DNA from: Gammaproteobacteria bacterium Ga0074134
GTDB lineage: Bacteria; Pseudomonadota; Gammaproteobacteria; Ga0077554; Ga007554
NCBI GenBank assembly: GCA_001464965.1
Contig: LNEJ01000031.1
Coordinates: 44,215-108,214 of the forward strand
Length of the DNA: 64,000 nt
Reading direction: 5' to 3'
Shown piece by piece: positions 9,656 to 57,838 of this stretch. Below the pieces are notes generated by a model. The model was not told where the DNA came from. It saw only the letters and a list, made by a program, of their open reading frames with translations, and ran no database searches. A program made the translations under genes and the position numbers. Every line of letters starts with the position of its first letter. Within the stretch, counting starts at the first letter, position 1.

Positions 9656-9881
9656 CCGAAAGTTGAATCCGGATTACTCATTGGGCTGCGTGCTGATTAG
9701 GGTGGGGTGATGGGTTCAGTGTGCCAATTTTTTGTCGTGGATCGCGGCCTGACATTAATAATGCCGTATTGCAAAATCCCATAATTATTGTGATATCATC
9801 AATGCCGATGGTGAGGGGGGGACGTTTCTTGCCCAAGCCACCAGATGTCAGGCATGTCATTTATTTAGCGAGGATTGCGAT

Positions 9882-10115
9882 ATGAATAAAGCTTTAGTTG
9901 GTGCAGCAGCGATTGCCATTACCACCCTGTTCGGTTTCTCCACCGTGGCCAACGCCGATGAGAAGGCTGCCGGCGCTGCTGCCCCAGCCGCACCTGCCGC
10001 TGAGCACAAGGAAATGAAAAAGCACCACGAGATGAGCAAACACCACAAGAAAGAAAGCAAGGCTGAAGAGAAAAAGGAAGAGAAGAAAGAAGAAATGAAA
10101 GAAATGAAGAAGTAA
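9882..10115 (+). CDS. small secreted His/Lys/Glu-rich protein
   Basis: 77 aa. Signal peptide ending VANA|DEK, an Ala/Pro linker, then a charged tail EHKEMKKHHEMSKHHKKESKAEEKKEEKKEEMKEMKK. A strong terminator follows. Confidence 0.6.
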   Translation: MNKALVGAAAIAITTLFGFSTVANADEKAAGAAAPAAPAAEHKEMKKHHEMSKHHKKESKAEEKKEEKKEEMKEMKK

Positions 10116-14995: not shown

Positions 14996-15070
14996 GGGCG
15001 ATTAGCTCAGCGGTAGAGCACTGCCTTCACACGGCAGGGGCCACTGGTTCGATCCCAGTATCGCCCACCA
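14996..15070 (+). tRNA. tRNA-Val (anticodon CAC)
   Basis: Hand-folded cloverleaf: acceptor GGGCGAT/ATCGCCC, D arm GCTC..GAGC, anticodon stem CTGCC/GGCAG with loop TTCACAC, T arm ACTGG-TTCGATC-CCAGT, encoded CCA. Confidence 0.92.
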
Positions 15071-20273: not shown

Positions 20274-20289
20274 TTCCTTCTCCTTTCAG

Positions 20290-41916: not shown

Positions 41917-45343
<3,427 letters not shown>

Positions 45344-45376: not shown

Positions 45377-46030
45377 CTACTCGCGGGTGTTTACCCCATA
45401 GCGCGCCCGATAGGCGCGGATGTTCTCCAGCGCGTCTGTCATCGCCGGTTGTGCGGACAGGTATTCAATCAAATTGCCCAGATTGACAATGCTTGCCACC
45501 TTGATCCCATGCGCCTCTTCAACTTCCTGGATCGCGGATAACGCGCCCGCGCCGCGCTCTTGTCTGTCCAGCGCAATAACAACACCCGCCGGAATTGCCC
45601 GTGCCGCCTTAATGATTACAATTGATTCGCGCACCGACGTACCCGCCGAAATCACGTCATCGATAATCATAACCTGCCCCGTCAGTTTCGCCCCCACCGT
45701 TGTGCCGCCCTCTCCATGGTCCTTGGCCTCCTTGCGGTTGAAGGCATAAGGAATATCGCGCTGATGATGATCGGCGAGCGCAATCGACGTGGCCACCGCC
45801 AGCGGTATGCCCTTATAGGCCGGGCCGAACAGCATGTCATAGTTTACGCCTGAGTTTTCCAGTGCAGCAGCATAATAGCGCCCCAATCGCGCAATGCTGC
45901 CGCCGGTATTGAACAGGCCGCTGTTAAAAAAATAGGGGCTGACACGCCCGGATTTCAGGGTGAATTCCCCAAAACGCAGCACACCTGTAGCAATCACAAA
46001 ATCAAGGAATTCGCGCTGATAATTTTGCAT
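45377..46030 (-). CDS. pyrE: orotate phosphoribosyltransferase
   Basis: [17 protein letters not shown] and the PRPP loop [13 protein letters not shown]. Confidence 0.95.
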
Positions 46031-46054
46031 GGAGGTTTGCCCGTGATTAAATTT

Positions 46055-46196
46055 AGGGTGCCTCTATAAATTCGATCAAGGCGCGATGGCAAGGCGGAAA
46101 TGCGCGAAAAAGCGGAGTGTACACGTAGTACATGAGCATTTTGAGCGCATTTCCAACGCCGCCATCGCGGCTTCAGCAAATTTATAGAGGCGCCCT
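46055..46196. repeat. nested imperfect palindrome, element B3
   Basis: Outer arms AGGGTGCCTCTATAAATT / AATTTATAGAGGCGCCCT. Middle arms CGCGATG / CATCGCG. Inner arms GGAAATGCG / CGCATTTCC. Tip hairpin TGTAC-ACGTA-GTACA. Core at 46105-46145. Confidence 0.7.
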
Positions 46197-46236
46197 TTAG
46201 GCTATTATACCGGCCTCGCCGTACAATGGAAAACAC

Positions 46237-47004
46237 ATGAAAATAATCGCACTTAATGCCAACGGCATCCGCTCTGCTGCCAGTAAGGGATTCTTTGAGT
46301 GGATGTTAAAGCAGGACGCCGACGTCGTGTGCCTGCAGGAAACCAAGGCGCAGGAACATCAACTTCCCCCTGAGATCTATCACCCGTCAGGCTACCACGC
46401 CTATTTTCATTCTGCCGAAAAGAAAGGTTATAGCGGCGTGGCGCTGTATTGTAAAAAGAAGCCGGATCGTGTGGTGATGGGCCTGGGCTGGCAGGATATT
46501 GATGCGGAGGGGCGCTTTATTCAGGCCGATTTCGGCAGTCTTAGCGTTATCTCCTTGTATATGCCCTCAGGCAGCAGTGGCGAGCAGCGCCAAGCGGTAA
46601 AGTTCGACCTAATGGAGCGCATCAAGCCCGTTCTCAGGCAGTTCCAGGAAGATCAGCGCGAATACATCATCTGTGGCGACTGGAACATTGCCCATAAACA
46701 GATTGACCTCAAAAACTGGCGCGGCAACCAGAAAAATTCCGGATTTCTGCCAGAAGAGCGCGCCTGGATGGACGAGCTATTCGGCCCGCTGGGATTTGTG
46801 GACGCCTATCGCGTCGTCAACCAGGAGGCGGATCAATATACCTGGTGGTCGAACCGCGGTCAGGCATGGGCCAAAAACGTGGGATGGCGCATCGACTATC
46901 AAGTGACTACGCGGGGCCTGAAAGATAAAATCAAAGAAGCATCAATTTACAAAGAGCAACGCTTCTCCGACCATGCCCCGTTAATCATCAAATACGATTT
47001 CTAA
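46237..47004 (+). CDS. xthA: exodeoxyribonuclease III
   Basis: NANGIRSA, VCLQETK, YTWWSNRG, and the terminal SDHAP of the EEP nuclease family. Confidence 0.93.
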   Translation: MKIIALNANGIRSAASKGFFEWMLKQDADVVCLQETKAQEHQLPPEIYHPSGYHAYFHSAEKKGYSGVALYCKKKPDRVVMGLGWQDIDAEGRFIQADFGSLSVISLYMPSGSSGEQRQAVKFDLMERIKPVLRQFQEDQREYIICGDWNIAHKQIDLKNWRGNQKNSGFLPEERAWMDELFGPLGFVDAYRVVNQEADQYTWWSNRGQAWAKNVGWRIDYQVTTRGLKDKIKEASIYKEQRFSDHAPLIIKYDF

Positions 47005-47390
47005 TCAGGGTGTTCGATGAATTCGCGGGTTGGCAAGTGCCCGCTGAATCCGTCAAGGCGCATATGTGGGAATACAAAGCAGTTGCGCGCCTACAAGCAA
47101 CGCGTGCGGGTGACGCAGAATGCTTGGCTCCCGATTGTTCGCGATGGCCGTCTAAAGGCATCCTGGATGACATGCAAACATAAATGCAAAACACGTCTTG
47201 ACGCCGGATACGGGCATGTGGCACGATCAGATATGGGATGCAGTTTATAAGGGATTAGCTTGACGGTCACCTTGCAATTTTTTTGTATTGGTGGTAATAG
47301 ATAGCAAATGGCATTCACCATGTGTCATTCCGGGTTTGCACGGGCAACCAGTACGTGCACAAGCAGCAGCAACCATAATGGGAGGGATAG

Positions 47391-47696
47391 ATGAATAATA
47401 AGCTGACTCTGGGGAAAATATTTTTTCCCGCTTTTATCGGTGGGGTGACCACCGGCATGGGTAATGGAAGTGTGTTCGGCGCCGCAGTAATGTGCGCCGT
47501 AGGGCGTGGCCCCTACGAAAGCTGGGGCGGCTGGGGTATGGATGCTTATAATCCAGCGACGTTCTCTGGGTTCGTGGATTGGATGATGTTCGTCTTCGGG
47601 GCAGCATTCTTCATTATCATGGTAATGGCGATGGTCAGACACGGCGCTCTTGAAGCTGCGGCGATTGCCAAAGGTGAAAAGCCAGCCTATTTCTAA
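47391..47696 (+). CDS. small two-TM membrane protein, first gene of the oxidase block
   Basis: 101 aa. GGGAGGG RBS, two hydrophobic segments, ends in four consecutive in-frame stops. No family recognised. Confidence 0.55.
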   Translation: MNNKLTLGKIFFPAFIGGVTTGMGNGSVFGAAVMCAVGRGPYESWGGWGMDAYNPATFSGFVDWMMFVFGAAFFIIMVMAMVRHGALEAAAIAKGEKPAYF

Positions 47697-47943
47697 TAGT
47701 AATAGCCTGGACGGGGAATCATAGGTTTTTTTGCTGGTATTTTCTTGTCGGCAATTAGCCTCTTCAATTTTTCGAGTTCTTAAAGGGGGTTCACTATGTT
47801 GGCGACTTTCGCTGGTGGTTGCGGTATTTTGCTCGCGTTCTCGAGTATGTGGATGTCTTGGTATCTTCTGAATATGATGAAAGAGTAGTTTTTTTGTTTG
47901 GGCAGAATAAAGGTTAGTGTTACTACCTGGGAGGTGAGGGGTT

Positions 47944-49353
47944 ATGTTATTAAAATATTTGTCCGCAAAGAATGAGGATATCCCGCCAGGATCAGCGGCG
48001 ATATTTTTTGGGTTTTCCGCAATTTTCTGGTTTGTAGTAGGTACAGGGTTGGGTTCGTTCAATGCCGCGAAGCTTGCCTTCCCGGATTTTGTGACCGGCA
48101 CCGAACTATTCGCCTTTGGTCACATGAGGCAGGTACACGTTCTCGCAGTGATCGTCGGCTGGATTTCCATGGCGTTCGCCATGACCATGATGTACATGAC
48201 GCCTGCCCTGGGTAATACCCGGATGTGGTCGGAGAAGTTGGGTCTGTGGACGGCGCTCTTATGGAACGTTGGCCTTTCCTCTGCACTGATAAGCCTCTGG
48301 ATCGGCATTACCTCGGGTCGTGAGTATTCTGATTTTGCATGGCCGTTTGACCTGGTGATTCTGTTTGGTGTTATTACGCCGCTGTGCGTCAACGTCATCA
48401 TGACGATTGCTCACCGCCGCACGCAAGGTATCTATATCACCAACTGGTTTTTCGGTGCCTGTACCTTCATGGTCGGTATTGTATTGCTGGTAGGTAACTC
48501 CCCTGAGTATTTCCATCTCACCGGTTTGTCCGAGGCCTACCTGACATGGTGGAATGCCCATAATCTCCTGGGCCTCTGGATCACTCCCGTAGCAGCCGCG
48601 ATCGCGTACTATACGATCCCCAAACTGACGGGTAACCCGCTCTACTCGCATCGTATCGGCCATATGCATTTTTGGTCGATTGTTGTGTTTTATTCCACGC
48701 CGGCTTCGCACCACTTGATGTCCTCACCGTTGCCTGAGTGGCTGAAGTCCTTCGCTTCCGTGGAAGGCGTGTTGATTCTGATCCCCGCTGTTGCCTTTGT
48801 TGCCAATATCCTGTTGACCATGAAGGGCAAGTGGAGCATGTTCGTGGAGAACATCGAGATCAAGTTCTCCGTCACGGGTGTGTTTCTGGCGATTCCCCTG
48901 AACATGCAGGGCGGATTCCAGCAGACGCGTTCCATCAACTGGTTTATCCATGGTACGGGCTGGATCGTGGCGCATGCCCATTTGGCCTTGTTGGGAATGT
49001 CCACCTTCCTGGAGATCGCAGCGGTCTATTTTGGCCTGCAGCAGATGCTGAAGAGAAAGCTCTACTCCTTGGCACTGGCCAACTTCCACTACTGGTTCGT
49101 GCTGATCGGCTTCTGTACCTACTGGATATCCATGACCATTGCAGGCCTGATCCAGGGTGCCGGCAAGATCTATGAGGTGCCTTATATCGACGTCGTGATT
49201 GCAGAGCATCCTTACATGATCGCACGCTGGATTGGGGGCACCATGGTATTTACCGGTAATTTGGTCTGGCTATACAACATGTGGATGACCGCCCGTGTGG
49301 GTACGTTGGTTCCAGATGGCCGTTATGCTCATGAGCTGGCATACGAGCGTTAA
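47944..49353 (+). CDS. heme-copper oxidase subunit I, C-family (CcoN-like), divergent
   Basis: Low-spin heme His context GHMRQVHVLAV. CuB His in WWNAHNLLGLW (CcoN: WWYGHNAVGF). Tyr-X5-HH in FYSTPASHH (CcoN: YIWAGPHH). HxH in VAHAHLALLG. About 12 TM. GGAGGTGAGG RBS. Confidence 0.85.
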   Translation: MLLKYLSAKNEDIPPGSAAIFFGFSAIFWFVVGTGLGSFNAAKLAFPDFVTGTELFAFGHMRQVHVLAVIVGWISMAFAMTMMYMTPALGNTRMWSEKLGLWTALLWNVGLSSALISLWIGITSGREYSDFAWPFDLVILFGVITPLCVNVIMTIAHRRTQGIYITNWFFGACTFMVGIVLLVGNSPEYFHLTGLSEAYLTWWNAHNLLGLWITPVAAAIAYYTIPKLTGNPLYSHRIGHMHFWSIVVFYSTPASHHLMSSPLPEWLKSFASVEGVLILIPAVAFVANILLTMKGKWSMFVENIEIKFSVTGVFLAIPLNMQGGFQQTRSINWFIHGTGWIVAHAHLALLGMSTFLEIAAVYFGLQQMLKRKLYSLALANFHYWFVLIGFCTYWISMTIAGLIQGAGKIYEVPYIDVVIAEHPYMIARWIGGTMVFTGNLVWLYNMWMTARVGTLVPDGRYAHELAYER

Positions 49354-49446
49354 AAGAGACATCTGATATCGTGACATCCTAAAAACCCCCGGACACATCT
49401 GGTTGCCGGGGGATATAATGTGAACCAATAGTTGGGAGGGATAAAA

Positions 49447-50421
49447 ATGGCTTTTAAAGAGTATAGATTAGGTGCCGCAATGGTCGGGGGCGCGTTGGGG
49501 CTCTCGATGTGCATTACGATACTCATGCCTAGTTTTGATTTGAGATCTGCGGTGTCGACAAAAATGGCGCTGGAAAAGCAGTTGTCCGCGGGGTTTGATA
49601 TAGGTTTTGGCTATGCTGACCCACTTCTCCTGGGCATCAACCGACCTATTACAGTGGACTTGGAAACAGACCCTAAAACTGGCGCAAAACTTGACCCGCC
49701 TATCAGGGCGTATGTATACAAGCCAGGTGTTCCGATGCCGCCGAATATCCGGCACCCCCATGACTTGGGTAAGGGCGTTCAAGACCTGAGCGAAAGTCAG
49801 GGTCAGATTGGCGCTGTCAGCGGCTCGAACCATAGCAAAGGGAGCCAGGAAGGTGTGGTTTTCACGCTGGCGCTCGGAGAGTTCAATGGTGAAGAGCTGA
49901 CCTACATCGAGAACGCCTCGGTAACCAAGGGTTGGACGCCTGATGCTACGCTTGCTGCCGCCGGCGATAAGAACACTCATCACATTTCCAAAGGCAAGAC
50001 GGAGTTTGTGGTGCAGGGTTGCTGGTGGTGTCATACGCTCTTGCCTGAGCAGACCCAGGATTGGCAGGCTTTTGGCGCCCCTCCCTATCTGGGTGACTTC
50101 AATGGCGAAAACCCGACCGCATTCGGTTCTGACCGCAAAGCGCCGGATATTCTCCATGTCGCTTCCAGAAACTCGTCTCGTGAGTGGATGATGATGCACT
50201 TCTTTAATCCCAGATTGGTCCAGGTCAACTCCATCATGCCGCGTTTTGACTATCTGTGGGGTGATAAAGATGCGCAGGGTAACACCATTGACTACGATAA
50301 GTGGCGTGCCGAATATAAGGAGTACTCCGAAGGCAAGAGAACTTATCCGCCAGAGGTGCCCGATTACGCGCCCGATAGCGAAATTCGCGCTTTGATTGAC
50401 TGGGTTCTGAGTCTGAAGTAA
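49447..50421 (+). CDS. CcoO-like monoheme cytochrome c subunit with a large N-terminal insertion
   Basis: TM anchor, then heme site QGCWWCH at residues 192-196. Downstream strings parallel CcoO (GSDRKAPDILHV, REWMMMHFFNPRLVQVNSIMPRFDYLW). The start was moved to the ATG at 49447, which has GGGAGGG upstream. Confidence 0.8.
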   Translation: MAFKEYRLGAAMVGGALGLSMCITILMPSFDLRSAVSTKMALEKQLSAGFDIGFGYADPLLLGINRPITVDLETDPKTGAKLDPPIRAYVYKPGVPMPPNIRHPHDLGKGVQDLSESQGQIGAVSGSNHSKGSQEGVVFTLALGEFNGEELTYIENASVTKGWTPDATLAAAGDKNTHHISKGKTEFVVQGCWWCHTLLPEQTQDWQAFGAPPYLGDFNGENPTAFGSDRKAPDILHVASRNSSREWMMMHFFNPRLVQVNSIMPRFDYLWGDKDAQGNTIDYDKWRAEYKEYSEGKRTYPPEVPDYAPDSEIRALIDWVLSLK

Positions 50422-50447
50422 TCAATCATATATAAGAGGGGTATATT

Positions 50448-51077
50448 ATGGCCTGGAAAATGGATAACCCGCTGTACTCGCTTTCCGATGAGCAAGAACA
50501 GCAGCAAATATTAAAAATGTGGGGCGAGGAAAGGATGGGTGGATTGATACATCCGGCGAATAACCGCCTGCCCTTTCCGCTGACGTTCCTGATCGCGCTA
50601 ATCATTCTCACGGCATTCATGCTTACCATGCCGATATGGGGGCAAAGGCCGACGGCTGCGATTTATCAAACCCATGTGGAGTTGATGAATTCTCCTGAGG
50701 TGCAGAAATTGGCTACGCCCGAGGAGAAGATGAAGTTCATCAACAATGAAGCGTACAGCAAGGCTGACAATGCATTGAAAGGTCAGCTTGAGCGTCATCC
50801 CATCGACTGGTATGACTTGCAGAACTTGGCCCCGCACATCATTGAGCTACAGAAGCAAACCAAATACCCACTTGATAACTTCACAGTGTTAGGTGACAAG
50901 GTTGTTTTGGCGAACTTTGAGGGTAATTTCCGTGCGGATGGCGTTAGGGAGCGTAAGCAGCCGTGGTGGGACAAGGGGTATACCATTGACGTGTTCTACG
51001 TGGCCTACTACTGCTTGTGGATGTTCATCATGATCAAGCGCTTACCGCACTTCACCAAGAAGCCCGTTACCACTTGA
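50448..51077 (+). CDS. membrane protein of unknown function, in the position normally held by ccoQ/ccoP
   Basis: 209 aa with two TM segments (LTFLIALIILTAFMLTM; VFYVAYYCLWMFIMI). No CxxCH. No family recognised. Confidence 0.6.
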   Translation: MAWKMDNPLYSLSDEQEQQQILKMWGEERMGGLIHPANNRLPFPLTFLIALIILTAFMLTMPIWGQRPTAAIYQTHVELMNSPEVQKLATPEEKMKFINNEAYSKADNALKGQLERHPIDWYDLQNLAPHIIELQKQTKYPLDNFTVLGDKVVLANFEGNFRADGVRERKQPWWDKGYTIDVFYVAYYCLWMFIMIKRLPHFTKKPVTT

Positions 51078-51105
51078 TTTAATTAGCTTGAGGAGGACTT
51101 AAAAC

Positions 51106-51258
51106 ATGATCGATATCGACAATCTTTCTATTGTGGCGGCGGGGATAATTGCCTTTGTGTTTACGGCGCCGTATTTGTACAGCACGATCGTGGACAAATA
51201 CTGGCGGGAGCACAAGGAAGACAAGCAAATGGCAAAGGATGCCGAGGCATTCAAGTAA
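51106..51258 (+). CDS. 50-aa single-TM protein (not in ORF track)
   Basis: My translation is MIDIDNLSIVAAGIIAFVFTAPYLYSTIVDKYWREHKEDKQMAKDAEAFK. GAGGAGGA RBS 8 nt upstream. A terminator follows. Confidence 0.5.
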   Translation: MIDIDNLSIVAAGIIAFVFTAPYLYSTIVDKYWREHKEDKQMAKDAEAFK

Positions 51259-51302
51259 GCTTGATGCTTGTCTAGCCGGGTTAGTAAGGTAGTATTATCG
51301 TT

Positions 51303-51337
51303 AAGATGCCGCTCTGGTGAAGGGCGGCATCTTTTTT
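51303..51337 (+). terminator. rho-independent terminator closing the oxidase structural operon
   Basis: AAGATGCCGC / GCGGCATCTT stem followed by TTTTT. Confidence 0.7.
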
Positions 51338-51661
51338 ATTGGAGTTTTGTTTAAAGTGGCTGCGCGGGGTGGGGTGTTCGAGACTTAGTCAAGCCTAGAC
51401 TTTCCTTTGGGGTGTCTGAAATTGTTTGTTTTCAATGAGCTATTCTAGTGAAGGCTGCTAGGGCAATATACTGATATTTTGGGTAAGGCGGGTTCTGTTG
51501 AAAAGCCCTGAATAAGCGAACATTCATGTAAAACGCCTGTCCAACTTAGCGCGGGGATGCCGTGTATCAGGACATGGCCAGTCGGCGACTCCAATGACGG
51601 GCAAGCATATTGAACTGCTCATTCATTTTGCGGCGGCACGGTGTGTTAGGTAATCATCAAT

Positions 51662-52003
51662 ATGAGGAATGAGTCTCTGTCTCTCTTGTCAACTCTTCTT
51701 GCAAATACCCGGCTCGGGGAATATTCTGGAGCGATGCTCTTAAAGGTGCAAGAAAACACCAGTACCCTTTTTGGTCTTGATATGACTATTGAGGGATTAA
51801 ATAGCCATCGGTACAGCGTCGCCATTTTTGTTTTTTTGATCATGCAGGTTATATTGTTCGCCTTCATGATTTATATTTACATGAGGAAAAGCAGGCGCGC
51901 ATTAAAAACCGGTGAAAAGGTGATGTTCGGTGCTCTGATTATGGGCATTTTTATTGGGGTGGCTTTCGGCTGGACACAAATGATCGAGGGCTATCTCTTT
52001 TAG
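51662..52003 (+). CDS. hypothetical membrane protein (start uncertain)
   Basis: Two TM segments in the C-terminal two-thirds (VAIFVFLIMQVILFAFMIYIY; FGALIMGIFIGVAFGW). No obvious RBS at 51662. An internal ATG at 51782 is possible. Confidence 0.4.
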   Translation: MRNESLSLLSTLLANTRLGEYSGAMLLKVQENTSTLFGLDMTIEGLNSHRYSVAIFVFLIMQVILFAFMIYIYMRKSRRALKTGEKVMFGALIMGIFIGVAFGWTQMIEGYLF

Positions 52004-52012
52004 GAGTAAGAC

Positions 52013-52273
52013 ATGACTGAATATCTGCAATCTTTGCCCGATGGTTGGACTATATATGTTTGGCTGGTCGCTGCTGCGATGATCTTGATCGTGGCGGGCT
52101 ATTTTATGTGGTGGGCGGCCAAAAATGAGCAGTTTGATGAAGACATCAAATACGTTATCTTTGATGAGAAGGATAAACAGAAGATGTCACCCGAGGAGTT
52201 TGCTAAAAGCCAAGAGGTGATGAAGCACCAAATGCAGCGTCGGGAAGAAAACCTGGCCAAGAAAGATAAATAG
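52013..52273 (+). CDS. CcoS/FixS-like cbb3 oxidase maturation protein
   Basis: Single TM followed by FMWWAAKNEQFDEDIKYVIFDEKD, which parallels the CcoS pattern F-W-a-x-k-s-G-Q-f-d-D...iL-dD. AGGAG RBS. Confidence 0.6.
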   Translation: MTEYLQSLPDGWTIYVWLVAAAMILIVAGYFMWWAAKNEQFDEDIKYVIFDEKDKQKMSPEEFAKSQEVMKHQMQRREENLAKKDK

Positions 52274-52281
52274 GAATTTAA

Positions 52282-52791
52282 ATGCGTAAAGGCGAGAAAG
52301 GTATTCTTGCCCTGATTGGCATCTTGTCTGTGGCTCTGGTGGGCCACAAAATATGGCAGCTGAGCACTGAAAAAAAAGAGGTGGATCGTGGAATCCCCTT
52401 TTATTCAACGGCGTCCCCCCAGTTGGGGACCGCAGGCTCCGATCTTTATCGCCGCCTTGAGTGTAAAAACTGCCACTCGTTGTGGAGTGTGCGTGATATG
52501 AGTGCTAATGTGCCGGCCCCGGCATTGGATGGTATTGGCTCGTTGCGCGACGAACAGTGGTTCTATACGTATTTCTCTGCCGGGAACCCCCAGTCGATCC
52601 TTCCTTCGCGCTTGAAAAAGATGTATCAAATGCCATCGTATGCGCATCTTTCCGAGGAAGAACGTAAAGTCCTCGCTTCTTATATGGCTAGTCTGAAGGT
52701 GCAGGACTGGTACTTGGAAGAGACTAAGAAGGCTGAGTTTGAAAAGCTGACAGGCAAGCCTTATGTTGCCGCAGGCAAGGTGATTCAATGA
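52282..52791 (+). CDS. membrane-anchored monoheme c-type cytochrome
   Basis: N-terminal TM, heme site CKNCH, candidate Met ligand in YQMPSY, LDGIGS and LASYMASL strings as in CcoP/CcoO-type class I domains. Confidence 0.7.
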   Translation: MRKGEKGILALIGILSVALVGHKIWQLSTEKKEVDRGIPFYSTASPQLGTAGSDLYRRLECKNCHSLWSVRDMSANVPAPALDGIGSLRDEQWFYTYFSAGNPQSILPSRLKKMYQMPSYAHLSEEERKVLASYMASLKVQDWYLEETKKAEFEKLTGKPYVAAGKVIQ

Positions 52792-53318
52792 ACGGCAAAA
52801 TTAAAAGCATACTCCTTGATGTTCTTGTCGCGGCCGTTGCCATAACGGTGGGTGTTGTCATCAATGTTCTTGGTGACCGATGGACAGGGGTTAAGTTGCA
52901 TTTATTTTCCGGGATTAATTATTTCACTTATGATTGGGCCGTGACGCTCTTTTTTGTGCCGTTTGTTGCTGGCCTCTTTGCGGCCTTGATTTATGGGTTT
53001 GGGGGTAAGTTGTTGGCGTTTTTTGTACCTTTTATTGTGCAGGGATATGCATATCTGGATGCATTTTATGGTGGCGTCGTGATACCAGAGGGTGTAAGGT
53101 TGCTTCCCCTTGTATACTGGCTTCTGGTTGTTTTGATTGCCATGGAGTTAGCAGGGGCGGGCGGCTTGGTGGGTGAGATAGTTGTGAAAAGGACCTACGG
53201 GCGCACCCCCAAGCATTTGCGGCATAGGCTTTATAAAGAAGCAGGCAGCGAGTTGGTTGCCGAGAACGCGCCGGTTGCCGGCAGTGCATCGTCTGGGGTG
53301 GAAAATGAAGTCCGGTGA
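52788..53318 (+). CDS. four-TM membrane protein of unknown function
   Basis: ATGA overlap with the cytochrome c gene. Four hydrophobic segments. No family recognised. Confidence 0.55.
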   Translation: MNGKIKSILLDVLVAAVAITVGVVINVLGDRWTGVKLHLFSGINYFTYDWAVTLFFVPFVAGLFAALIYGFGGKLLAFFVPFIVQGYAYLDAFYGGVVIPEGVRLLPLVYWLLVVLIAMELAGAGGLVGEIVVKRTYGRTPKHLRHRLYKEAGSELVAENAPVAGSASSGVENEVR

Positions 53319-54372
53319 ACTTCCACTCGCCCGAGGGATGACACCGGGGCAGATTGCCACACGCAAACGGTATATTGCGGCGACAGTGGTTTCATGTATT
53401 GCCTTGACCATGATCTTTGCAACCTTACATGTGGTGCAACTTGGCTCGAATCGTATGGCGGATATGCGCAGCAAGGCCTCATATGATCTCAAAGAGATGC
53501 ATAGCAAGATCCGGGCGGCGGGTGAGGATGTAACTCTTAACGCGCGTAGGGCGAAAGCCGGGCCTGTGGCGGCGGTTTCTTATACGCCTGCTGAAGTGGA
53601 GGCACTGCTGACGCCTGAGCAATGGCGTGAAGTGGATTCAACGCTATTGATCCCCGCCGGTGAGTTTTTGATGGGTACGGACCGGGAGCGTGATGATATG
53701 CAAAACCGTCCACAACATCGTGTCACACTAAAAGCCTATTTGATTGATAAATACCCGGTTACCAATGCCCAGTATGCGCGTTTTGTAGCGGCTGGCCATC
53801 GGCCGCCCCTGAATTGGCGTAAGGGTAGAATTCCCGAGGGCACAGAGTTGCATCCCGTGACGATGGTCTCGTGGTTTGATGCGGTGAGTTACGCGAAATG
53901 GGCAGGAAAACGCTTGCCTACCGAAGCGGAGTGGGAGAAGGCGGCGCGGGGTGTGGATGGACGTCGTTGGCCGTGGGGGGATAAAATGGATCCAACGCGA
54001 TTGAATACTTACTATTCTGTAGGTTCAACCACGCCCGTAACAGCTTATCCTTCAGGCGCAAGTCCCTATGGGGTGCTTGGCATGGCGGGCAATGTCAGCC
54101 AGTGGGTTGAGAATGATTTGCTGCCGTACGCGGGCAGCGCTGCGCCTGAGGATGTTTTTAAGGCAAAGATTGCTCAAATAAATTCAGCGGCAGATAGATC
54201 GCTCAAAGTTGTCGATTTGGTGTCTACAGAGAAACGCTACAAGGTTTTGCGCGGTGGCTCTTGGAAGAGTGATCCATTTTCCACCTCAACATATCACCGG
54301 AATTTTTCTTGGCCCTATGCGGCGTCTGATTTTTTTGGATTTCGTTGCGCCAAAGATGCTGACCCATCCTGA
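53305..54372 (+). CDS. SUMF1/FGE-sulfatase-domain protein (NirV/EgtB/PvdO superfamily), membrane anchored
   Basis: N-terminal TM. PQHRVTLKAYLIDKYPVTNAQYARF, HPVTMVSWFDAVSYAKWAGKRLPTEAEWEKAARG, GNVSQWV, RGGSW, FGFRCAKD. The FGE catalytic Cys pair is not evident. The start was moved to the ATG at 53305. Confidence 0.85.
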   Translation: MKSGELPLARGMTPGQIATRKRYIAATVVSCIALTMIFATLHVVQLGSNRMADMRSKASYDLKEMHSKIRAAGEDVTLNARRAKAGPVAAVSYTPAEVEALLTPEQWREVDSTLLIPAGEFLMGTDRERDDMQNRPQHRVTLKAYLIDKYPVTNAQYARFVAAGHRPPLNWRKGRIPEGTELHPVTMVSWFDAVSYAKWAGKRLPTEAEWEKAARGVDGRRWPWGDKMDPTRLNTYYSVGSTTPVTAYPSGASPYGVLGMAGNVSQWVENDLLPYAGSAAPEDVFKAKIAQINSAADRSLKVVDLVSTEKRYKVLRGGSWKSDPFSTSTYHRNFSWPYAASDFFGFRCAKDADPS

Positions 54373-54387
54373 TTCGAGGCGGTATTT

Positions 54388-54627
54388 ATGAAAAAATATA
54401 TTGGTATATGGGGCGCTTTTTTGCTGCTGGTGCAATCGGATTATGCCCTGGCGCTGGATAGCTACCGTTATTTGCATGTTACGATTGATACACCTTGGCT
54501 CATTTTTTTGTTTCTACTGCCCATGGTGTTGGGTCCCATTATTATTATTGCGATACTTTATTGGTATTTTGCCGCGCGCAAGCGCGCGGAGCAGGCTGAG
54601 GTTGCCAAGGAGCCAGAAGAGGCGTAA
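54388..54627 (+). CDS. small membrane protein
   Basis: 79 aa. Signal-like N-terminus, one TM (LIFLFLLPMVLGPIIIIAILYWYF), charged tail. A terminator follows. Confidence 0.5.
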   Translation: MKKYIGIWGAFLLLVQSDYALALDSYRYLHVTIDTPWLIFLFLLPMVLGPIIIIAILYWYFAARKRAEQAEVAKEPEEA

Positions 54628-54668
54628 CAGGATATCGCGGTTTTTTAAGACGAAAGTCATCGATGATC

Positions 54669-54690
54669 AAAGCCCCGTATGGGGCTTTTT
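54669..54690 (+). terminator. rho-independent terminator
   Basis: AAAGCCCC-GTAT-GGGGCTTT followed by TT. Confidence 0.6.
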
Positions 54691-54712
54691 AATATGTGTC
54701 GGAGTTTGAAGC

Positions 54713-55087
54713 ATGACAGCAGCAAGTTGCCGCATGATGAGCGCTAGAAAAAGCTGGTTAATTTTATTCCTCGTGGCGATTTTTATGGGGGCAATGGCGT
54801 CACCGCCGGTCAGGGCAAATGAGAGCCAGGAGGTGATGCAGTCCTTTGTCAACAAGGAGCAGACTGTCGGCAAGGATGTTTTGATTGCCGACAAAAAGAA
54901 GCACCAGATTTTGTTTATTATGGGTATCCTGCTGCTGATTGGCATTATCGGTGCCGCCGCGCTTGGTATTGCGATGGCAGTGTATGGCAAACAGGTTTTT
55001 GTTGCGCATATGGTATTTGCGGGGTTCAGCGTCTTTTTGGCGATCGCTCATGCGGTTACTGCCATTGTCTGGTTCTTTCCTTTCTGA
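54713..55087 (+). CDS. membrane protein of unknown function
   Basis: Signal peptide (probably from the internal MMSARKSW...PPVRA|NE) and two TM segments. Ends 19 nt upstream of the next gene. Confidence 0.5.
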   Translation: MTAASCRMMSARKSWLILFLVAIFMGAMASPPVRANESQEVMQSFVNKEQTVGKDVLIADKKKHQILFIMGILLLIGIIGAAALGIAMAVYGKQVFVAHMVFAGFSVFLAIAHAVTAIVWFFPF

Positions 55088-55105
55088 AAACTTTAAACGA
55101 TCCTC

Positions 55106-57838
55106 ATGCACGTTGATCAGCCGCTCAATCCCAGTTTGAGCGATTCCTCTCCACAAGACGGTGTACCCCGCCGTTGGGTCTGGGCGCTGATCCTGCTCTA
55201 TTTTGTCTCCGGTCTAACCAGTCTCGCCTATGAAGTGTTGTGGGCTCGCATGCTGGGTTTGCAATTCGGGGTCAGCATTTTCGGTGTAGTGGTGACGGTT
55301 GCCACTTTCATGTCGGGTCTTGGTCTGGGCAGCTTGCTGGGAGTGAGGCTTGCGCGCAACTCGCGGGCACCGCTGGTGGCTTTTGCCGCGCTGGAGGTTG
55401 GGGTCGCTCTTTATGCCCTGTGTATGCCATGGATGCAGCAGATGCTCGATGGCTGGCTGGGCGCGTATGCTGCGCAGGCAGGCCTCACGGCATGGTATAC
55501 GTTGCAATCTCTGGCTGCGTTGGTATTGCTGTTTGTCCCTGCACTGGCGATGGGGGCGGGATTCCCTTTGGTGCTCAGGGCGCTTGCAGGCGGTGCCGCA
55601 TCACCAAGCGTCTCACTAGGCAAAATCTATGGTTTTAATGCGGTAGGTGGTGCGGTGGGGGCGTTATTGCCCTTGCTATTGTTGCCATGGCTGGGATGGT
55701 CGAGCGCTGTGCATGTGGTTGCTGGCATTGGATTGTGCGTAGGCCTGGCGGCATTTTCGTTATCCTTTTCGCCACTTGCGAATACCGTGGCCGCGAAGAA
55801 AGATCCAGAGGGGGGCGTTGCGCGGTTATCTTTCGTTTCACTTGCTGCTTATGCTGGCGTGGGCGCGGCGGCATTGATGCTGCAGGTGGGTTGGACGCGC
55901 TTGTTCGGCATGATTCTGCTGCGTACTGAATATGTGCTGGCAGTTCTGCTGGCAGTGTTTCTGGTGGGGATTGGCCTGGGCAGTCTAGCTGCGCGGCACA
56001 TGCGCGGCGTGCGCTGGTTTGCTGTGCTGCCGTTGCTGGCGGGCAGTTTTAGCCTGCTGGGTATGTGGCTGGTGCCGAAGTTGGCGGGGTGGGTCGAGCA
56101 GGCGCATTTTTCATCCCTTGCGGACGCATTGTGGTGGCAGGGGCTGGCTGTTGCCGCGCTGACCTTGCCGGTAACGTTTGTGCTTGGCGCGTGGCTGCCA
56201 TTGCTCAATAAACGTTTGGGGGATCAGCACAGCACGGGGTCGTGGCTGTATGGTGTCAATTCTCTGGGCGCAGCGCTGGGTGCGGTGCTGGCGGGATTCG
56301 TGCTCATACCCTGGTTGGGAACCATGCCCACCTTGTGCGTGGCGGCAGTTGTGTTGTTCGCGTGCGGCATGGTGTGGGCTGATGGGCGCTGGCCCTGGCT
56401 GGCTATGCTCGGAGTAGTGGTACTGGCGGGGGTGGGCAGGGTGTATGAACTGCCCGCGGTGAGTGCGCTGCTGCCTGTGGCGCAGGCGGGCAGCCAGGAT
56501 ATTTATGTGCATGAAGACGCTCTATCCATTACCCATGTTGTGGAGCGGATCGATGGTCAGCGTTTGTTGCTGGCTGATTTGCAGCGCATGGATGCATCTT
56601 CCGATCCCTCTGCTGTCGAGGCGCAGCAAAATCAGGCCCGTCTGCCATTGATGCTGCATCCGGCGCCGCGCTCGGTGCTATTCCTTGGTTTGGGTACGGG
56701 GATATCCGCGGCAGGATCGCTGCCATACCCGCAATTGTCGCGCAAGGCGGTTGAGCTTTCGCAGGGGGCTATTACAGCGGCGGCGCAGTGGTTTGCGCCA
56801 GTGAATCACAATGTGATGGGCAAGTTGGCCGTGACGCGCGATGACGCGCGACGCTTTTTGCGCCGCGACACAGGGCATTACGATGTCATTATTGGCGATT
56901 TGTTTCATCCCGATCTGGTTGGGCATAGCGCCTTGTTGTCCGTGCAGCAGTTTCAGCGCGCCCGTGACAGGTTGACGGAGCATGGACTGTTCGTGCAGTG
57001 GCTGGCCCTGAATCAGTTTGATGCCGGGTCACTGGATATAATTTTCCGCAGCTTCCGGCGGGTCTTCCCCGACGCGGTCATTTTTATGGATGGTTTCCGT
57101 GTCGCGCTGGTAGGTCCGCAGGATGTTGTGCAGGGCGCGCCCGCATTGCTAGCAAATTTGGGCCGTCTGGCGCAAGCCGGACAATCCGCCGCAACGGGCG
57201 GGGAGGGCGCATGGACATGGCTGGGTCGTTACTGGGGGCCGATTGCGCCGAGTGCGGGTCCGGTGCAGGACGAATGGGCGCCTCAGATTGAGTACCGCTT
57301 ACCACGCGCGCGTTACCGTGATGCCTTTAATCTTGATGTATTATTGTCCAAGCTTCTGGAGCAGCGGCCAAATATGCCGCAGGCGGCGCTTGCCTTGAAT
57401 GTGCCGGTTGATGCCATGCAGGAGTTCGAGCGTAGCTATGTGGCTTCTTTCTTGGCGGTGAGAAGCTGGGTAGCCTTGCTGCGCGGTGATAATACGGGCG
57501 AGGCGCAACGTCTGATGCGCCTCGCCTTTGAGGCCAATCCGCGTGATCGCTGGATCGGTTTTGATCTGGCCGACAAGATGCTGGCGACATTGCCGCAGGC
57601 GCTGGATCGCGGCATGAATAAACGGCAGGCATTGCAGGCTATTTTGCAGGTGCGTCCAGACCATGCCGATGCCTTGCGGGCATTATGGCGCGTGGAGAAG
57701 GATGCCGGTGATGGTAAAATGGCGTCATTTTATCGTGCCCGTCTCAAGGCGGTCAGTCCTCTGGATCGTGACATTTATGACCTTGGAATGGGACAGGCGC
57801 AGAAAAAGCCCGAATCTTTGCTGTCACCCTCGCATTAG
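55106..57838 (+). CDS. fused multi-TM (MFS-like) / spermidine-synthase-like methyltransferase-fold / TPR protein
   Basis: 910 aa. N-terminal half polytopic (SGLTSLAYEVLWARMLGLQFG...). Central SAM/polyamine-fold strings (VLFLGLGTGISA; VIIGDLFHPD). C-terminal TPR-like helices. Confidence 0.8.
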   Translation: MHVDQPLNPSLSDSSPQDGVPRRWVWALILLYFVSGLTSLAYEVLWARMLGLQFGVSIFGVVVTVATFMSGLGLGSLLGVRLARNSRAPLVAFAALEVGVALYALCMPWMQQMLDGWLGAYAAQAGLTAWYTLQSLAALVLLFVPALAMGAGFPLVLRALAGGAASPSVSLGKIYGFNAVGGAVGALLPLLLLPWLGWSSAVHVVAGIGLCVGLAAFSLSFSPLANTVAAKKDPEGGVARLSFVSLAAYAGVGAAALMLQVGWTRLFGMILLRTEYVLAVLLAVFLVGIGLGSLAARHMRGVRWFAVLPLLAGSFSLLGMWLVPKLAGWVEQAHFSSLADALWWQGLAVAALTLPVTFVLGAWLPLLNKRLGDQHSTGSWLYGVNSLGAALGAVLAGFVLIPWLGTMPTLCVAAVVLFACGMVWADGRWPWLAMLGVVVLAGVGRVYELPAVSALLPVAQAGSQDIYVHEDALSITHVVERIDGQRLLLADLQRMDASSDPSAVEAQQNQARLPLMLHPAPRSVLFLGLGTGISAAGSLPYPQLSRKAVELSQGAITAAAQWFAPVNHNVMGKLAVTRDDARRFLRRDTGHYDVIIGDLFHPDLVGHSALLSVQQFQRARDRLTEHGLFVQWLALNQFDAGSLDIIFRSFRRVFPDAVIFMDGFRVALVGPQDVVQGAPALLANLGRLAQAGQSAATGGEGAWTWLGRYWGPIAPSAGPVQDEWAPQIEYRLPRARYRDAFNLDVLLSKLLEQRPNMPQAALALNVPVDAMQEFERSYVASFLAVRSWVALLRGDNTGEAQRLMRLAFEANPRDRWIGFDLADKMLATLPQALDRGMNKRQALQAILQVRPDHADALRALWRVEKDAGDGKMASFYRARLKAVSPLDRDIYDLGMGQAQKKPESLLSPSH

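Follow-up and report, generated by a model that had tools for sequence, protein, structure and literature searches.

A probable distal-branch cbb3 oxygen reductase with candidate small subunits in a gammaproteobacterial genome

The locus most likely encodes a C-family (cbb3-type) haem-copper O2 reductase of the 'distal' branch, working by the mechanism proposed below. We put this at roughly three chances in four. The distal branch is the version of the enzyme found in neutrophilic iron oxidisers, in sulfur and electrode lithoautotrophs and in many uncultured Gammaproteobacteria. This enzyme type already has a name in the literature, and genome studies of iron oxidisers and electrode-feeding bacteria report it as highly expressed, so the novelty is lower than a sequence-only reading of this DNA had implied. 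The uncharacterised part of this little-studied branch is the set of extra subunits and an eight-gene helper module.

Gene content and synteny

The window is the whole stretch of DNA that was analysed, 64,000 nucleotides. The sequence-only reading proposed an operon at 47391-51258 in the order 101-aa membrane protein, divergent CcoN, CcoO-like monohaem subunit, 209-aa protein and 50-aa protein. An ORF check of the window finds all five genes on the + strand exactly where they had been placed. Their order and strand are kept across the species-level genomes examined, so they are not chance ORFs. However, the operon makes up only the front half of a cluster of 13 genes whose synteny is nearly invariant in 80 species-level genomes. 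Eight further conserved genes follow it, up to 57838. The exoIII gene flanking the cluster is not conserved in these genomes. Synteny counts below refer to the same 80, and the count for W910 is limited by contig ends. The features are as follows.

47391..47696, +: A101, a conserved 101-aa two-TM membrane protein, candidate small subunit (ORF, synteny)
47944..49353, +: CcoN-like catalytic subunit I, 469 aa, of the distal/iron-oxidiser-type cbb3 clade (COX1, ligands, tree)
49447..50421, +: CcoO-like monohaem c subunit II, 324 aa (FixO, CWWCH; ~125-aa insert)
50448..51077, +: X209, a 209-aa protein, probable haem-less CcoP remnant and structural subunit (hhalign, conservation)
51106..51258, +: Y50, a 50-aa single-TM protein, candidate small subunit (conserved ORF family)
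51303..51333, +: intrinsic terminator/attenuator, 13-bp stem with 7 G-C pairs and a T-run (hairpin)
51662..52003, +: Z113, a conserved two-TM protein, first gene of the downstream module (synteny in 68/80 loci)
52013..52273, +: S86, a CcoS/FixS-like single-TM cbb3 maturation protein (Pfam FixS; 70/80 loci)
52282..52791, +: C169, a membrane-anchored monohaem class-I cytochrome c with CKNCH and YQMPSY (Pfam Cytochrom_C; 71/80 loci)
52788..53318, +: T176, a conserved four-TM membrane protein (synteny in 61/80 loci)
53305..54372, +: F355, an N-terminally anchored FGE-sulfatase-fold protein (Pfam FGE-sulfatase; 67/80 loci)
54388..54627, +: U79, a small protein with one predicted TM segment (synteny in 65/80 loci)
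54713..55087, +: V124, with an N-terminal hydrophobic segment and two further TM segments (synteny in 62/80 loci)
55106..57838, +: W910, a large polytopic membrane protein with a spermidine-synthase-like domain, last gene of the cluster (57/80 loci)

The CcoO ORF is 49432-50421 (329 aa) if read from TTG; homologues and the NCBI gene call favour the ATG at 49447, which gives 324 aa. F355 is also readable from a TTG at 53257, and its 355-aa gene call is taken from a relative. A strong terminator at 51303-51333 separates the structural operon from the downstream module. By loose criteria, a hairpin and then a T-run occur in 68 of the 69 readable X209-Z113 intervals of related loci, mostly just 3' of the small ORF. 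A search for an FNR/Anr box 5' of the operon found none.

Subunit I

Subunit I matches Pfam COX1 with 249 bits. It had been called cbb3-like yet far from canonical CcoN, and this holds. On the ccoN equivalog TIGR00780 it reaches 226 bits where the cut-off is 583, and it is ~31% identical to P. stutzeri CcoN. The six ligand histidines claimed in C-family contexts are there too. RQVH, WWNAHN, FYSTPASHH and AHAH are all found in the 469-aa translation. Their counterparts in P. stutzeri CcoN are H60, H207, Y251/H257/H258 and H345/H347. The Tyr noted six residues before the HH pair is Y251, the C-family cross-link Tyr. Thus all seven active-site residues are retained. In the same alignment the Glu of the Ca site (E122) is kept. 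Of six channel residues checked, four are kept (T215, Y223, H243, N289) and two polar ones are replaced (S240G, Y317A). The Glu that hydrogen-bonds the haem b3 histidine is now Gln (E323Q). One should not take for granted that the enzyme has the O2 affinity and proton pumping of canonical cbb3.

A PDB sequence search with subunit I matches cbb3 CcoN only, with E of 8e-62 to 3e-43; NorB of cNOR has E = 0.07. Since the ligands and the cross-link Tyr are kept and only cbb3 CcoN matches, we read the enzyme as an O2 reductase and not as an NO reductase. The sequence-only reading held that this choice could not be made from sequence by eye. We argue that it largely can.

One could instead propose a C-family-derived enzyme that primarily reduces or detoxifies nitric oxide, with the small subunits replacing NorC-type functions. 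The nearest relatives of the C-family are cNOR and qNOR, and canonical cbb3 oxidases show some NO-reductase activity. NORs have no cytoplasmic proton channel, and E323Q, S240G and Y317A alter the proton path, which would fit this proposal. However, Q323 is common to most ligand-complete non-proximal CcoN in the tree. The cNOR enzyme (NorCB) is of the same superfamily, as the sister group of the C-family, and it also has a monohaem c partner. But the similarity to NorB is negligible next to the 1e-62 for CcoN, the cross-link Tyr and the three CuB histidines have the C-family, oxidase-type arrangement, and the next gene is a FixO-type CcoO, not NorC. Presumed clade members also have the highest expression of any oxidase in lithoautotrophs that live aerobically or microaerobically on O2. 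A primary role with nitric oxide is very improbable.

The distal clade

The tree agrees that subunit I does not fall inside ordinary CcoN. It belongs to a separate clade (50/50 bootstrap) distant from the P. stutzeri group. This clade is tight (74-100% identity, relatives in 345 species genomes) and isolated, with next relatives at most 41% identical. Its members are Sideroxydans, Gallionella, Nitrotoga, Zetaproteobacteria, Ca. Tenderia and many gammaproteobacterial MAGs. Subunit I is 79-81% identical to loci of Sideroxydans, Gallionella, Nitrotoga and Tenderia MAGs. In the match list it is 74-86% identical to proteins of MAGs labelled Zetaproteobacteria/Mariprofundales.

We identify this clade with the "distal cbb3" or "Complex IV (2)" of the literature. 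Distal cbb3 is reported for the organisms that carry clade members (PMC8788666, PMC7029218, PMC10734462). The label traces back to a subtree of Ducluzeau et al. 2008 and is applied to S. lithotrophicus ES-1, Gallionellaceae and Zetaproteobacteria. Complex IV (2) is the name used in Ca. Tenderia electrophaga (Tel_00440-00450). In both, gene order and gene sizes match the window, and nothing essential differs. The Zetaproteobacteria form has extra genes that the window lacks, upstream (a mini COX1-like protein, a cytochrome c, a thioredoxin-like protein) and downstream (a CcoG-like polyferredoxin, a dihaem cytochrome). The papers we found on the clade are genomic and transcriptomic, with no biochemical work on any member. 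Those on distal cbb3 cover ccoN, ccoO and one hypothetical Tenderia gene; none of them takes up the small subunits, the insert in CcoO or the module downstream.

Outside the clade, the CcoN with the highest identity (38-41%) is that of the outgroup P0242/L083, of the CcoO-cytochrome c fusion type (NCBIfam PRK14486-like). It shares Q323, but unlike the window it keeps S240 and Y317. In the outgroup, CcoO and a second haem c domain are joined in one subunit II protein. There is no A101 homologue 5' of the outgroup ccoN, and the contig ends before any X209 or Y50 position.

Subunit II

The next gene had been called a CcoO-like monohaem subunit, and it is one. It matches Pfam FixO with 47.8 bits (cut-off 29.6) at residues 187-279 and has a single CWWCH, though it is far under the ccoO equivalog cut-off. 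It aligns to residues 55-148 of CcoO in solved cbb3 structures and matches only cbb3 CcoO among solved structures. The CWWCH and the methionine of SIMPRF are invariant in its homologues, which are present in 79 of the 80 genomes.

Its TM anchor and haem domain are separated by an inserted periplasmic domain of ~125 aa (~residues 60-180). AF2 models it with pLDDT 81-96 in most 10-residue blocks and 67-78 in two, and a fold search of the PDB with it gave no match. The insert is clade-specific and absent in the nearest outgroup. It may occupy the periplasmic surface that CcoP haem domains otherwise cover, and it may be a docking site for the physiological donor.

The small membrane proteins

The three membrane proteins of 101, 209 and 50 aa are real, conserved and unannotated. 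None has a CxxCH or a family match in Pfam or NCBIfam; the lack of a haem motif had been noted for the 209-aa protein. They also travel with this CcoN clade. An A101 homologue lies 420-630 bp 5' of ccoN in 78 of the 80 genomes, with the invariant motif TTGMGNGSVFGAA..MCA.GRG and a WGGWG. X209 is found in 74 of the 80. A Y50-family ORF (M-I/L-D-x-D...P...YS..VD) is present in all 69 readable X209-Z113 intervals. No recognisable CcoQ is encoded, in line with the sequence-only reading, and hhalign of Y50 against CcoQ gave nothing. Y50 is a candidate small subunit and a positional analogue of CcoQ.

X209 has a cytoplasmic N-terminus, a TM segment, a helical periplasmic domain and a second TM segment. 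Its 1673 homologue clusters are all hypothetical or unnamed and have no Pfam domain; the family has 38 invariant columns. The AF2 model has pLDDT 72, and neither a fold search nor an HMM search of the PDB found anything. However, hhalign places X209 31-125 on CcoP 45-166 with a score of 40.9 (prob 72%, P 3.4e-5). Controls score lower: 19-22 for reversed CcoP, 10-21 for nine other TM families and 9-25 for thirty shuffles. On the CcoP side the aligned stretch takes in the N-terminal membrane domain and the beginning of the first haem domain. FixP_N is matched weakly by three of 38 X209 members. The window's X209 has His, not Glu, at the position equivalent to CcoP E49. This one profile-profile comparison of modest probability points to X209 as a probable haem-less CcoP relic. 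The description of the operon as lacking CcoP is thus probably only half right. No dihaem CcoP is encoded, but a remnant of one probably is.

In canonical enzymes the N-terminal segment of CcoP sits where the single proton channel opens to the cytoplasm. X209 would be a descendant of CcoP that lost both haem domains and kept the N-terminal 'G-I/L-x-E-x-N-N-x-L-P + TM' segment, so it would serve both in the structure of the complex and in proton entry. With no dihaem CcoP present, periplasmic c-type cytochromes would hand their electrons straight to the CcoO haem. From there the electrons would move to haem b and then to the b3-CuB site, where O2 would be reduced to water. A101 and Y50 would be further small subunits.

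Canonical CcoNOQP (P. stutzeri PDB 3mk7/5djq, Rhodobacter) shares with the window the fold and length of subunit I, the haem and CuB ligands, the helix-VII cross-link Tyr, the Ca-site Glu and four of six channel residues. In both, a monohaem CcoO with a TM anchor follows subunit I and a CcoS-type maturation factor is associated. The window differs in having the haem-less, possibly CcoP-derived two-TM protein and the 50-aa and 101-aa proteins in place of dihaem CcoP and CcoQ, in the ~125-aa CcoO insert, and in S240G, Y317A and E323Q. Its adjacent assembly genes are other than ccoGHI.

Expression of relatives

In S. lithotrophicus ES-1 the expression of the distal ccoN and ccoO ranks at the ~99th percentile. 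On a length-normalised log2 column Tenderia Tel_00435 to Tel_00450 have values of 12.4-13.3, and Tel_00455 to Tel_00490 have 8.2-10.7. Genes before the terminator position are ~4- to 30-fold above those after it. The A101 homologue Tel_00435 is near the CcoN level after length normalisation, and the X209 homologue Tel_00450 is co-expressed with CcoN and CcoO. We take these ES-1 and Ca. Tenderia genes to be relatives of the window clade. Far from being silent or decayed, the presumed relatives rank with the genes of highest expression.

We infer from synteny and co-expression that A101, X209 and Y50 are oxidase subunits. The enzyme could also consist of CcoN and CcoO only, the three proteins being CcoH-like assembly chaperones or unrelated co-travelling membrane proteins. 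CcoH-type assembly factors are likewise small membrane proteins that bind cbb3, and none of the three has a cofactor motif. But all three lie inside the structural transcription unit, 5' of the conserved terminator. In Tenderia they are at CcoN/CcoO-like levels, well over the downstream assembly-like module, and X209 resembles CcoP, a bona fide subunit. Small hydrophobic proteins are also easily overlooked by shotgun proteomes. We think a two-subunit enzyme is unlikely.

The downstream module

Besides a CcoS-like protein, an anchored cytochrome c and an FGE-fold protein, the module holds four small membrane proteins and a spermidine-synthase-like fusion. Except for the CcoS-like gene it is a guess that the module might, at lower stoichiometry, serve to insert cofactors and assemble the enzyme and possibly also to deliver electrons. 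S86 matches Pfam FixS with 23.5 bits (cut-off 23.1) at residues 14-43 but falls under the NCBIfam ccoS cut-off with 16.2 bits. Its segment W.AKNEQFDEDIKYV is largely conserved, and the EQFDEDIKY core is in at least 90% of sequences.

C169 matches Pfam Cytochrom_C with 31.5 bits and weakly FixO and Cytochrome_CBB3. It might be the true third redox subunit and a functional replacement for CcoP, with X209 unrelated to CcoP. It has a TM anchor and a class-I haem domain like the second haem domain of CcoP (hhalign prob 68%), and it is kept in 71 of the 80 loci. For Ferrovum JA12 a co-localised cytochrome c was proposed to stand in for subunit III (PMC4725956). However, the gene is 3' of the terminator, the Tenderia homologue is ~5-fold below CcoO and ~7-fold below CcoN on the length-normalised log2 column, and the likeness to CcoP is of a generic cytochrome c kind. 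We doubt that C169 is the third subunit. It could be a donor anchored in the membrane, as cytochrome cy is, and this is compatible with X209 as a CcoP relic.

Z113 has no Pfam or NCBIfam match. F355 matches Pfam FGE-sulfatase with 191 bits and is under the cut-offs of all NCBIfam equivalogs (EgtB, SenA, GldK, PvdO). U79 has the conserved motif DSYR.LHVTIDTPW, and V124 has the conserved His-containing motifs KH.ILF.MG and AHAV.AIVWFFPF. W910 matches Pfam Spermine_synth with 26.2 bits and weakly MFS_1; its Tenderia homologue Tel_00490 is annotated 'Spermidine Synthase'.

An intact operon for a divergent cbb3 oxidase

The locus is an intact and ordinary member of an oxidase clade that is already recognised and is biochemically unexplored. 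The sequence-only reading placed the genes at 47391-51258, and the five ORFs are where it put them, on the + strand. Its observation is confirmed and its interpretation is supported in part. The start of the CcoO-like gene is set by homologues and by the gene call on a near-identical contig. The structural genes and the feature that follows them are, in order:

+ strand: A101, 101-aa protein
47944-49353, + strand: CcoN-like subunit I, 469 aa
from ATG at 49447, + strand: CcoO-like subunit, 324 aa
+ strand: X209, 209-aa protein
+ strand: Y50, 50-aa protein
51303-51333: terminator with a 13-bp stem and a T-run, 45 nt 3' of the Y50 gene

Since the terminator lies just after the Y50 gene, the five-gene interval is a plausible transcription unit.

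Subunit I and its active site

Subunit I scores 249 bits against Pfam COX1. A search of PDB sequences matches cbb3 CcoN chains only (E 8e-62 to 3e-43), and the best NOR match among all PDB sequences is NorB 4xyd_A at E = 0.071 (15 bits). The claim that it is far from canonical CcoN is borne out, as it scores 226.5 bits against the TIGR00780 ccoN equivalog, which has a cut-off of 583.15. The other equivalog, TIGR00781 ccoO, gives 44.8 against 200.65. PDB matches limited to cbb3 CcoN, together with a ccoN score below the cut-off, mean that subunit I is a true but divergent member of the C-family. Alignment to P. stutzeri CcoN shows that all six histidine ligands of haem b, haem b3 and CuB are retained, and the strings quoted by the sequence-only reading map to H60, H207, H257, H258, H345 and H347, with the tyrosine before the HH pair at Y251. 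In the window's CcoN and in every member of the clade, by which we mean its close relatives, helix VII carries the Y251 equivalent (FYSTPASHH), with the HH pair six residues further on. This is the C-family cross-link position, the covalent His-Tyr link itself being a prediction. The glutamate of the Ca site, E122, is also retained in the alignment.

A library of 1.84 billion representatives, from clustering at 50% identity, was searched for relatives. In it a single full-length representative (81% identity) stands for the whole clade. Those that follow are at 56%, with a C-terminal third that is apparently out of frame, and at 41%, and the rest are at 37% or less. A neighbour-joining tree of 31 ligand-complete C-family representatives has the clade at a bootstrap of 50/50, among sequences with Gln at 323 and far from P. 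stutzeri and P0307 (another CcoN-like representative). A separation from P. stutzeri-type CcoN is thus what the phylogeny gives.

Whether the enzyme reduces O2 or NO had been called impossible to decide by eye. We argue that it can largely be decided from sequence. The ligands, the cross-link tyrosine, the PDB ranking and the position in the tree favour an O2 reductase rather than an NO reductase. An NO reductase would have to be reconciled with these active-site residues and that PDB ranking, with the physiology of the carriers, and with a partner subunit that is FixO-type and not NorC, so we consider it very improbable. Membership of cNOR or qNOR is rejected on the NorB E-value of 0.071, the cross-link tyrosine and the FixO-type partner. 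High-affinity O2 reduction with proton pumping is the function that goes with its class, and S240G, Y317A and E323Q, substitutions described below, may alter the pumping or the affinity.

In the channel, subunit I differs in part from P. stutzeri CcoN. T215, Y223, S240, H243, N289 and Y317 are the conserved polar residues that we take to line the single K-channel analogue, presumably as listed in Hemp 2007 and Buschmann 2010. The residue table uses P. stutzeri numbering, which was verified against the printed sequence. T215, Y223, H243 and N289 are retained and two positions are changed. S240 is Gly in the clade and in P0241, a frameshifted relative, and elsewhere only in the representative P0269. 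Y317 is Ala, a change that no ligand-complete sequence in the comparison shares apart from the clade and P0241. These two substitutions hint at a remodelled proton path. E323 is Gln in the clade, as it is in most ligand-complete CcoN that are not of the Pseudomonas type.

P0241 is the representative at 56% identity, the second closest. It runs into low-complexity text rich in Arg, Gly and Ala after about residue 335, and may be a copy with a frameshift, a pseudogene or a product of faulty assembly. It must also be noted that P0246, P0256, P0283, P0293, P0319 and others are full-length CcoN-like proteins, at 22-33% identity, with some or all of the haem and CuB ligands missing. Such ligand-poor, "degenerate" homologues of C-family subunit I are numerous.

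The CcoO-like partner and its insert

The gene after subunit I was said to encode a CcoO-like monohaem subunit, and it does. The protein scores 47.8 bits against FixO (cut-off 29.6), has an N-terminal TM anchor and a single CxxCH (CWWCH), and the Met of its SIMPRF motif is invariant. It aligns to the CcoO of five solved cbb3 enzymes from residue 182 only. Residues ~60-180 are modelled as a mixed alpha/beta domain, in which most blocks of ten residues have pLDDT of 81-96 and two have 67-78. A fold search of the PDB with this model returned no match below E 0.7.

The nearest CcoN outside the clade, P0242, polarizes the insert. The next gene at its locus encodes a CcoO that has no insert and is joined to another haem domain. 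Since the partner of the outgroup is insert-free, the insert is new to the clade. The P0242 locus has no A101 homologue upstream, and its contig ends before the position of X209 and Y50. The small subunits are probably also new to the clade.

X209 as a probable haem-less relative of CcoP

The sequence-only reading described the operon as lacking CcoP. This holds in that there is no dihaem ORF, with two CxxCH, in the cluster or in the window. It does not hold if X209 itself descends from CcoP, as a profile comparison makes probable. X209 has 1673 homologue clusters, all hypothetical or unnamed, and 38 invariant columns. It has no CxxCH, and both haem domains are missing. Since they are absent X209 is not a CcoP by definition, and can at most be a haem-less derivative. 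The AlphaFold2 model (pLDDT 72) predicts that the cytoplasmic N-terminus contains a helix and that TM helices lie at 43-59 and, C-terminally, at 178-197. The periplasmic domain between them is mostly helical in the model (pLDDT 74-91 in 10-residue blocks). Neither a PDB fold search with the model (no match below E 0.7) nor a search of PDB sequences with the family HMM found a relative. Pfam FixP_N is touched by 3 of 38 members of the family, at E ~0.2 only.

CcoP, CcoO and CcoQ sequences were drawn from 68 canonical ccoNOQP loci for profile-profile comparison with hhalign. A shallow alignment of 38 X209 sequences gave a probability of 0.3% against CcoP, which is not significant. The alignment of 74 sequences gave 72%, with P 3.4e-5 and a score of 40.9. 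X209 residues 31-125 pair with CcoP 45-166, such that "GG-l-x-E-x-NNRLP + TM + P-x-W-G-Q" is aligned to "DGIEEYDNPLP + TM + YPGLGN" of CcoP, and "PEVQ.LA..EEKM" to the start of its first haem domain. Reversed CcoP scores 19-22, nine other membrane-protein families 10-21 and thirty column shuffles 9-25. By comparison, C169, a cytochrome c encoded downstream, scores 38.9 against CcoP with its genuine cytochrome domain. Since the X209 score is above all controls, we read X209 as probably a haem-less CcoP derivative. The aligned motif includes Glu49 of canonical CcoP, which reportedly lies at the entrance of the proton channel (Buschmann 2010). The residue aligned to it is Glu in most members of the X209 family and His in the window's X209.

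A conserved unit of thirteen genes

Synteny was examined by tblastn of every window ORF against 80 loci. The order is A101-CcoN-CcoO-X209-Y50-Z113-S86-C169-T176-FGE-fold-U79-V124-W910, on the same strand almost wherever the contig extends. The conserved unit is 13 genes rather than five. The three small proteins do travel with this CcoN clade, their synteny being nearly constant across the 80 loci. An exonuclease III gene upstream is syntenic in the closest relatives only. Y50 was overlooked by tblastn in many loci, and a direct ORF scan found a family member (M-I/L-D-x-D...P...YS..VD) in 69 of 69 readable intervals. By loose criteria a hairpin with a T-run occurs in 68 of the same 69, mostly just 3' of the small ORF. 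The eight genes after it lie close together, either overlapping or separated by 8-85 nt.

Expression in Tenderia follows this division. As length-normalised log2 values, the first unit is at 12.4 (A101 homologue), 13.3 (N), 12.9 (O) and 12.6 (X209 homologue), and the eight downstream genes are at 8.2-10.7. The step between the units fits an attenuating terminator. This bears on two alternatives. The enzyme could be CcoNO only, with the small proteins as chaperones, and the PV-1 proteome reportedly showed just CcoNO. However, the genes of the small proteins sit in the operon and are co-expressed, so this seems unlikely. The other alternative is that C169 is a real third redox subunit. It is a TM-anchored monohaem class-I cytochrome and could be a tethered donor. 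However, it is encoded 3' of the terminator and its expression is ~5- to 7-fold lower, which makes a role as a subunit doubtful. A co-localised cytochrome c has been proposed as the replacement for subunit III in Ferrovum JA12, which has ccoNO alone (PMC4725956).

The claim that the 101-, 209- and 50-aa proteins belong to no described family stands. Searches of Pfam and NCBIfam gave sub-threshold noise only for A101, X209 and Y50, and likewise for Z113, T176, U79 and V124. A101 has an invariant motif, TTGMGNGSVFGAA..MCA.GRG. Y50 gave no signal against CcoQ in hhalign and is rejected as a CcoQ homologue. S86 (52013-52273, + strand) passes Pfam FixS marginally (23.5 bits vs 23.1) and is below the cut-off of the NCBIfam ccoS equivalog (16.2 vs 28.35). 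The signature of CcoS is one TM helix and then an acidic W-x-x-K-x-x-Q-F/Y-D-D/E segment, and a CcoS-like acidic segment is largely kept in 70 homologues of S86. In hhalign the S86 family aligns to CcoQ as well (probability 57%, P 1e-4, residues 25-57 vs 22-53), and the small-protein families of CcoS and CcoQ may be hard to separate at such distance. F355 has an FGE fold (Pfam, 191 bits) and passes no functional equivalog. A true formylglycine-generating enzyme or EgtB is rejected, since it is under every equivalog cut-off. W910 is a polytopic membrane protein with a fused spermidine-synthase-like domain.

Two Zetaproteobacteria loci, L084 and L085, have all 13 genes and extra ones (at 7046-9952 and 19420-21407). 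The extras upstream encode a cytochrome c of 206 aa, a mini COX1-like protein of 172 aa, which matches CcoN ~207-450, and a protein that is thioredoxin-like. On the downstream side there are genes for a CcoG-like polyferredoxin, for a protein of 143 aa with a weak likeness to the N-terminus of X209, and for a dihaem cytochrome of the DHC type. In the Tenderia table, genes of like size and annotation stand at the same flanking positions (Tel_00410-00420, Tel_00495). The window has none of these extra genes.

The clade and the "distal cbb3"

Among the matches listed, the closest homologues (74-86% identity) are from MAGs of Gammaproteobacteria, Betaproteobacteria and Zetaproteobacteria/Mariprofundales. 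CcoN is 79-81% identical to loci in Sideroxydans, Gallionella, Nitrotoga and Tenderia MAGs. Across contigs, counting one genome per species, a relative is encoded in 345 genomes, including Sideroxydans, Ca. Gallionella acididurans, Ca. Nitrotoga, Ca. Tenderia and many MAGs labelled Chromatiales or Ectothiorhodospiraceae. Proximal and/or distal forms of cbb3 occur in Zetaproteobacteria and Gallionellaceae (PMC7029218, PMC10734462). The label "distal" is taken here from papers that apply the terms of Ducluzeau 2008. The Tenderia supplementary table lists Complex IV (2) as Tel_00440 (1407 bp), Tel_00445 and Tel_00450 (624 bp, annotated as hypothetical), and Tel_00435 to Tel_00490 match the window in gene size and order. 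The Zetaproteobacteria locus L084 shows the same arrangement, ccoNO without ccoQP and then the same hypothetical genes. We therefore identify the window's enzyme with the "distal cbb3" or Complex IV (2), an assignment drawn from taxon overlap, gene sizes and synteny rather than from direct protein comparison with ES-1 or Tenderia. This enzyme type is already known from genomes and transcriptomes. We found no biochemical or structural study of the clade in the literature.

Distal ccoN and ccoO are at about the 99th percentile of expression in S. lithotrophicus ES-1. Canonical ccoNOQP is usually under oxygen-regulated promoters. No FNR/Anr box (TTGAT-N4-ATCAA, up to 2 mismatches) is present in 47000-47950, upstream of A101 or ccoN, in agreement with reports that distal cbb3 is expressed strongly and almost constitutively. 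By tblastn and a CxxCH scan there is no second or canonical ccoNOQP in the window, and the window has no cyc2 or cyc1.

The G+C content of the cluster is low, 48-52% at 46000-56000 against 55-62% over most of the window. Part of this dip may come from the amino-acid composition that membrane proteins have. Low G+C, together with CcoN identities of 74-86% between Gamma-, Beta- and Zetaproteobacteria, suggests that the cassette may have spread horizontally. The locus L003 (JAKFXX010000008.1; GCA_021731145.1) is a different contig from that of the window. It has a CcoN protein 100% identical to the window's, and neighbouring cluster proteins that are only 75-97% identical (T176 75%, Z113 and C169 85%). 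Constraint is very uneven within the cluster.

A proposed five-subunit enzyme with direct electron entry

We start from the C-family active site, the CcoO partner, the five-gene operon, the conserved terminator and the eight-gene module with its CcoS-like factor, and add the high expression in what we take to be members of the clade. Periplasmic cytochromes would donate straight to the haem of CcoO. The insert of CcoO and X209's periplasmic domain would cover the surface left by the absent CcoP haem domains, and could be the docking site of the donor. The N-terminal segment of X209 would preserve the proton-entry role of CcoP, and Y50 and A101 would be small structural subunits. The downstream module would insert cofactors and assist assembly, and its C169 may also deliver electrons as a tethered donor.

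Taken together, the clade may be a structurally distinct sub-family of the C-family with a five-subunit enzyme: CcoN, a CcoO that bears the insert, a haem-less CcoP relic, and the 50-aa and 101-aa subunits. It would have discarded the electron entry of CcoP and kept the role in the membrane and in proton entry, with a channel remodelled by S240G and Y317A. An eight-gene biogenesis and donor module (the CcoS-like protein, the FGE-fold protein, the tethered cytochrome c and others) would stand in place of ccoGHIS. Its occurrence in Gamma-, Beta- and Zetaproteobacteria would then reflect, perhaps, the horizontal spread of an oxidase suited to lithotrophy by extracellular electron uptake. We give this joint reading a probability of roughly 0.45.

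The presumed members of the clade are the dominant terminal oxidase, expressed at very high levels, in neutrophilic iron oxidisers and in one cathode-oxidising electroautotroph. The literature models them as ordinary cbb3. If subunits, channel and docking surface truly differ, the H+/e- ratio, the O2 affinity and the periplasmic donor cannot be borrowed from the Pseudomonas and Rhodobacter enzymes, and what is at stake is the energetics of the low-yield metabolisms of the carriers. The 13-gene cluster is a sharper genomic marker than ccoN alone, and unannotated proteins such as X209 can get a working annotation. Four results are the leads for further work: the architecture of 13 genes, the likely relic of CcoP without haem, the insert in CcoO and the channel substitutions.

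Other features of the window

A tRNA gene at 14996-15067 is the sole Rfam match in the window at the gathering threshold. At 41917-44436 there is a phosphomannomutase/phosphoglucomutase of 839 aa, which has a ~380-aa N-terminal extension with hydrophobic segments before its four PGM_PMM domains. A related contig has this enzyme called at the same length.
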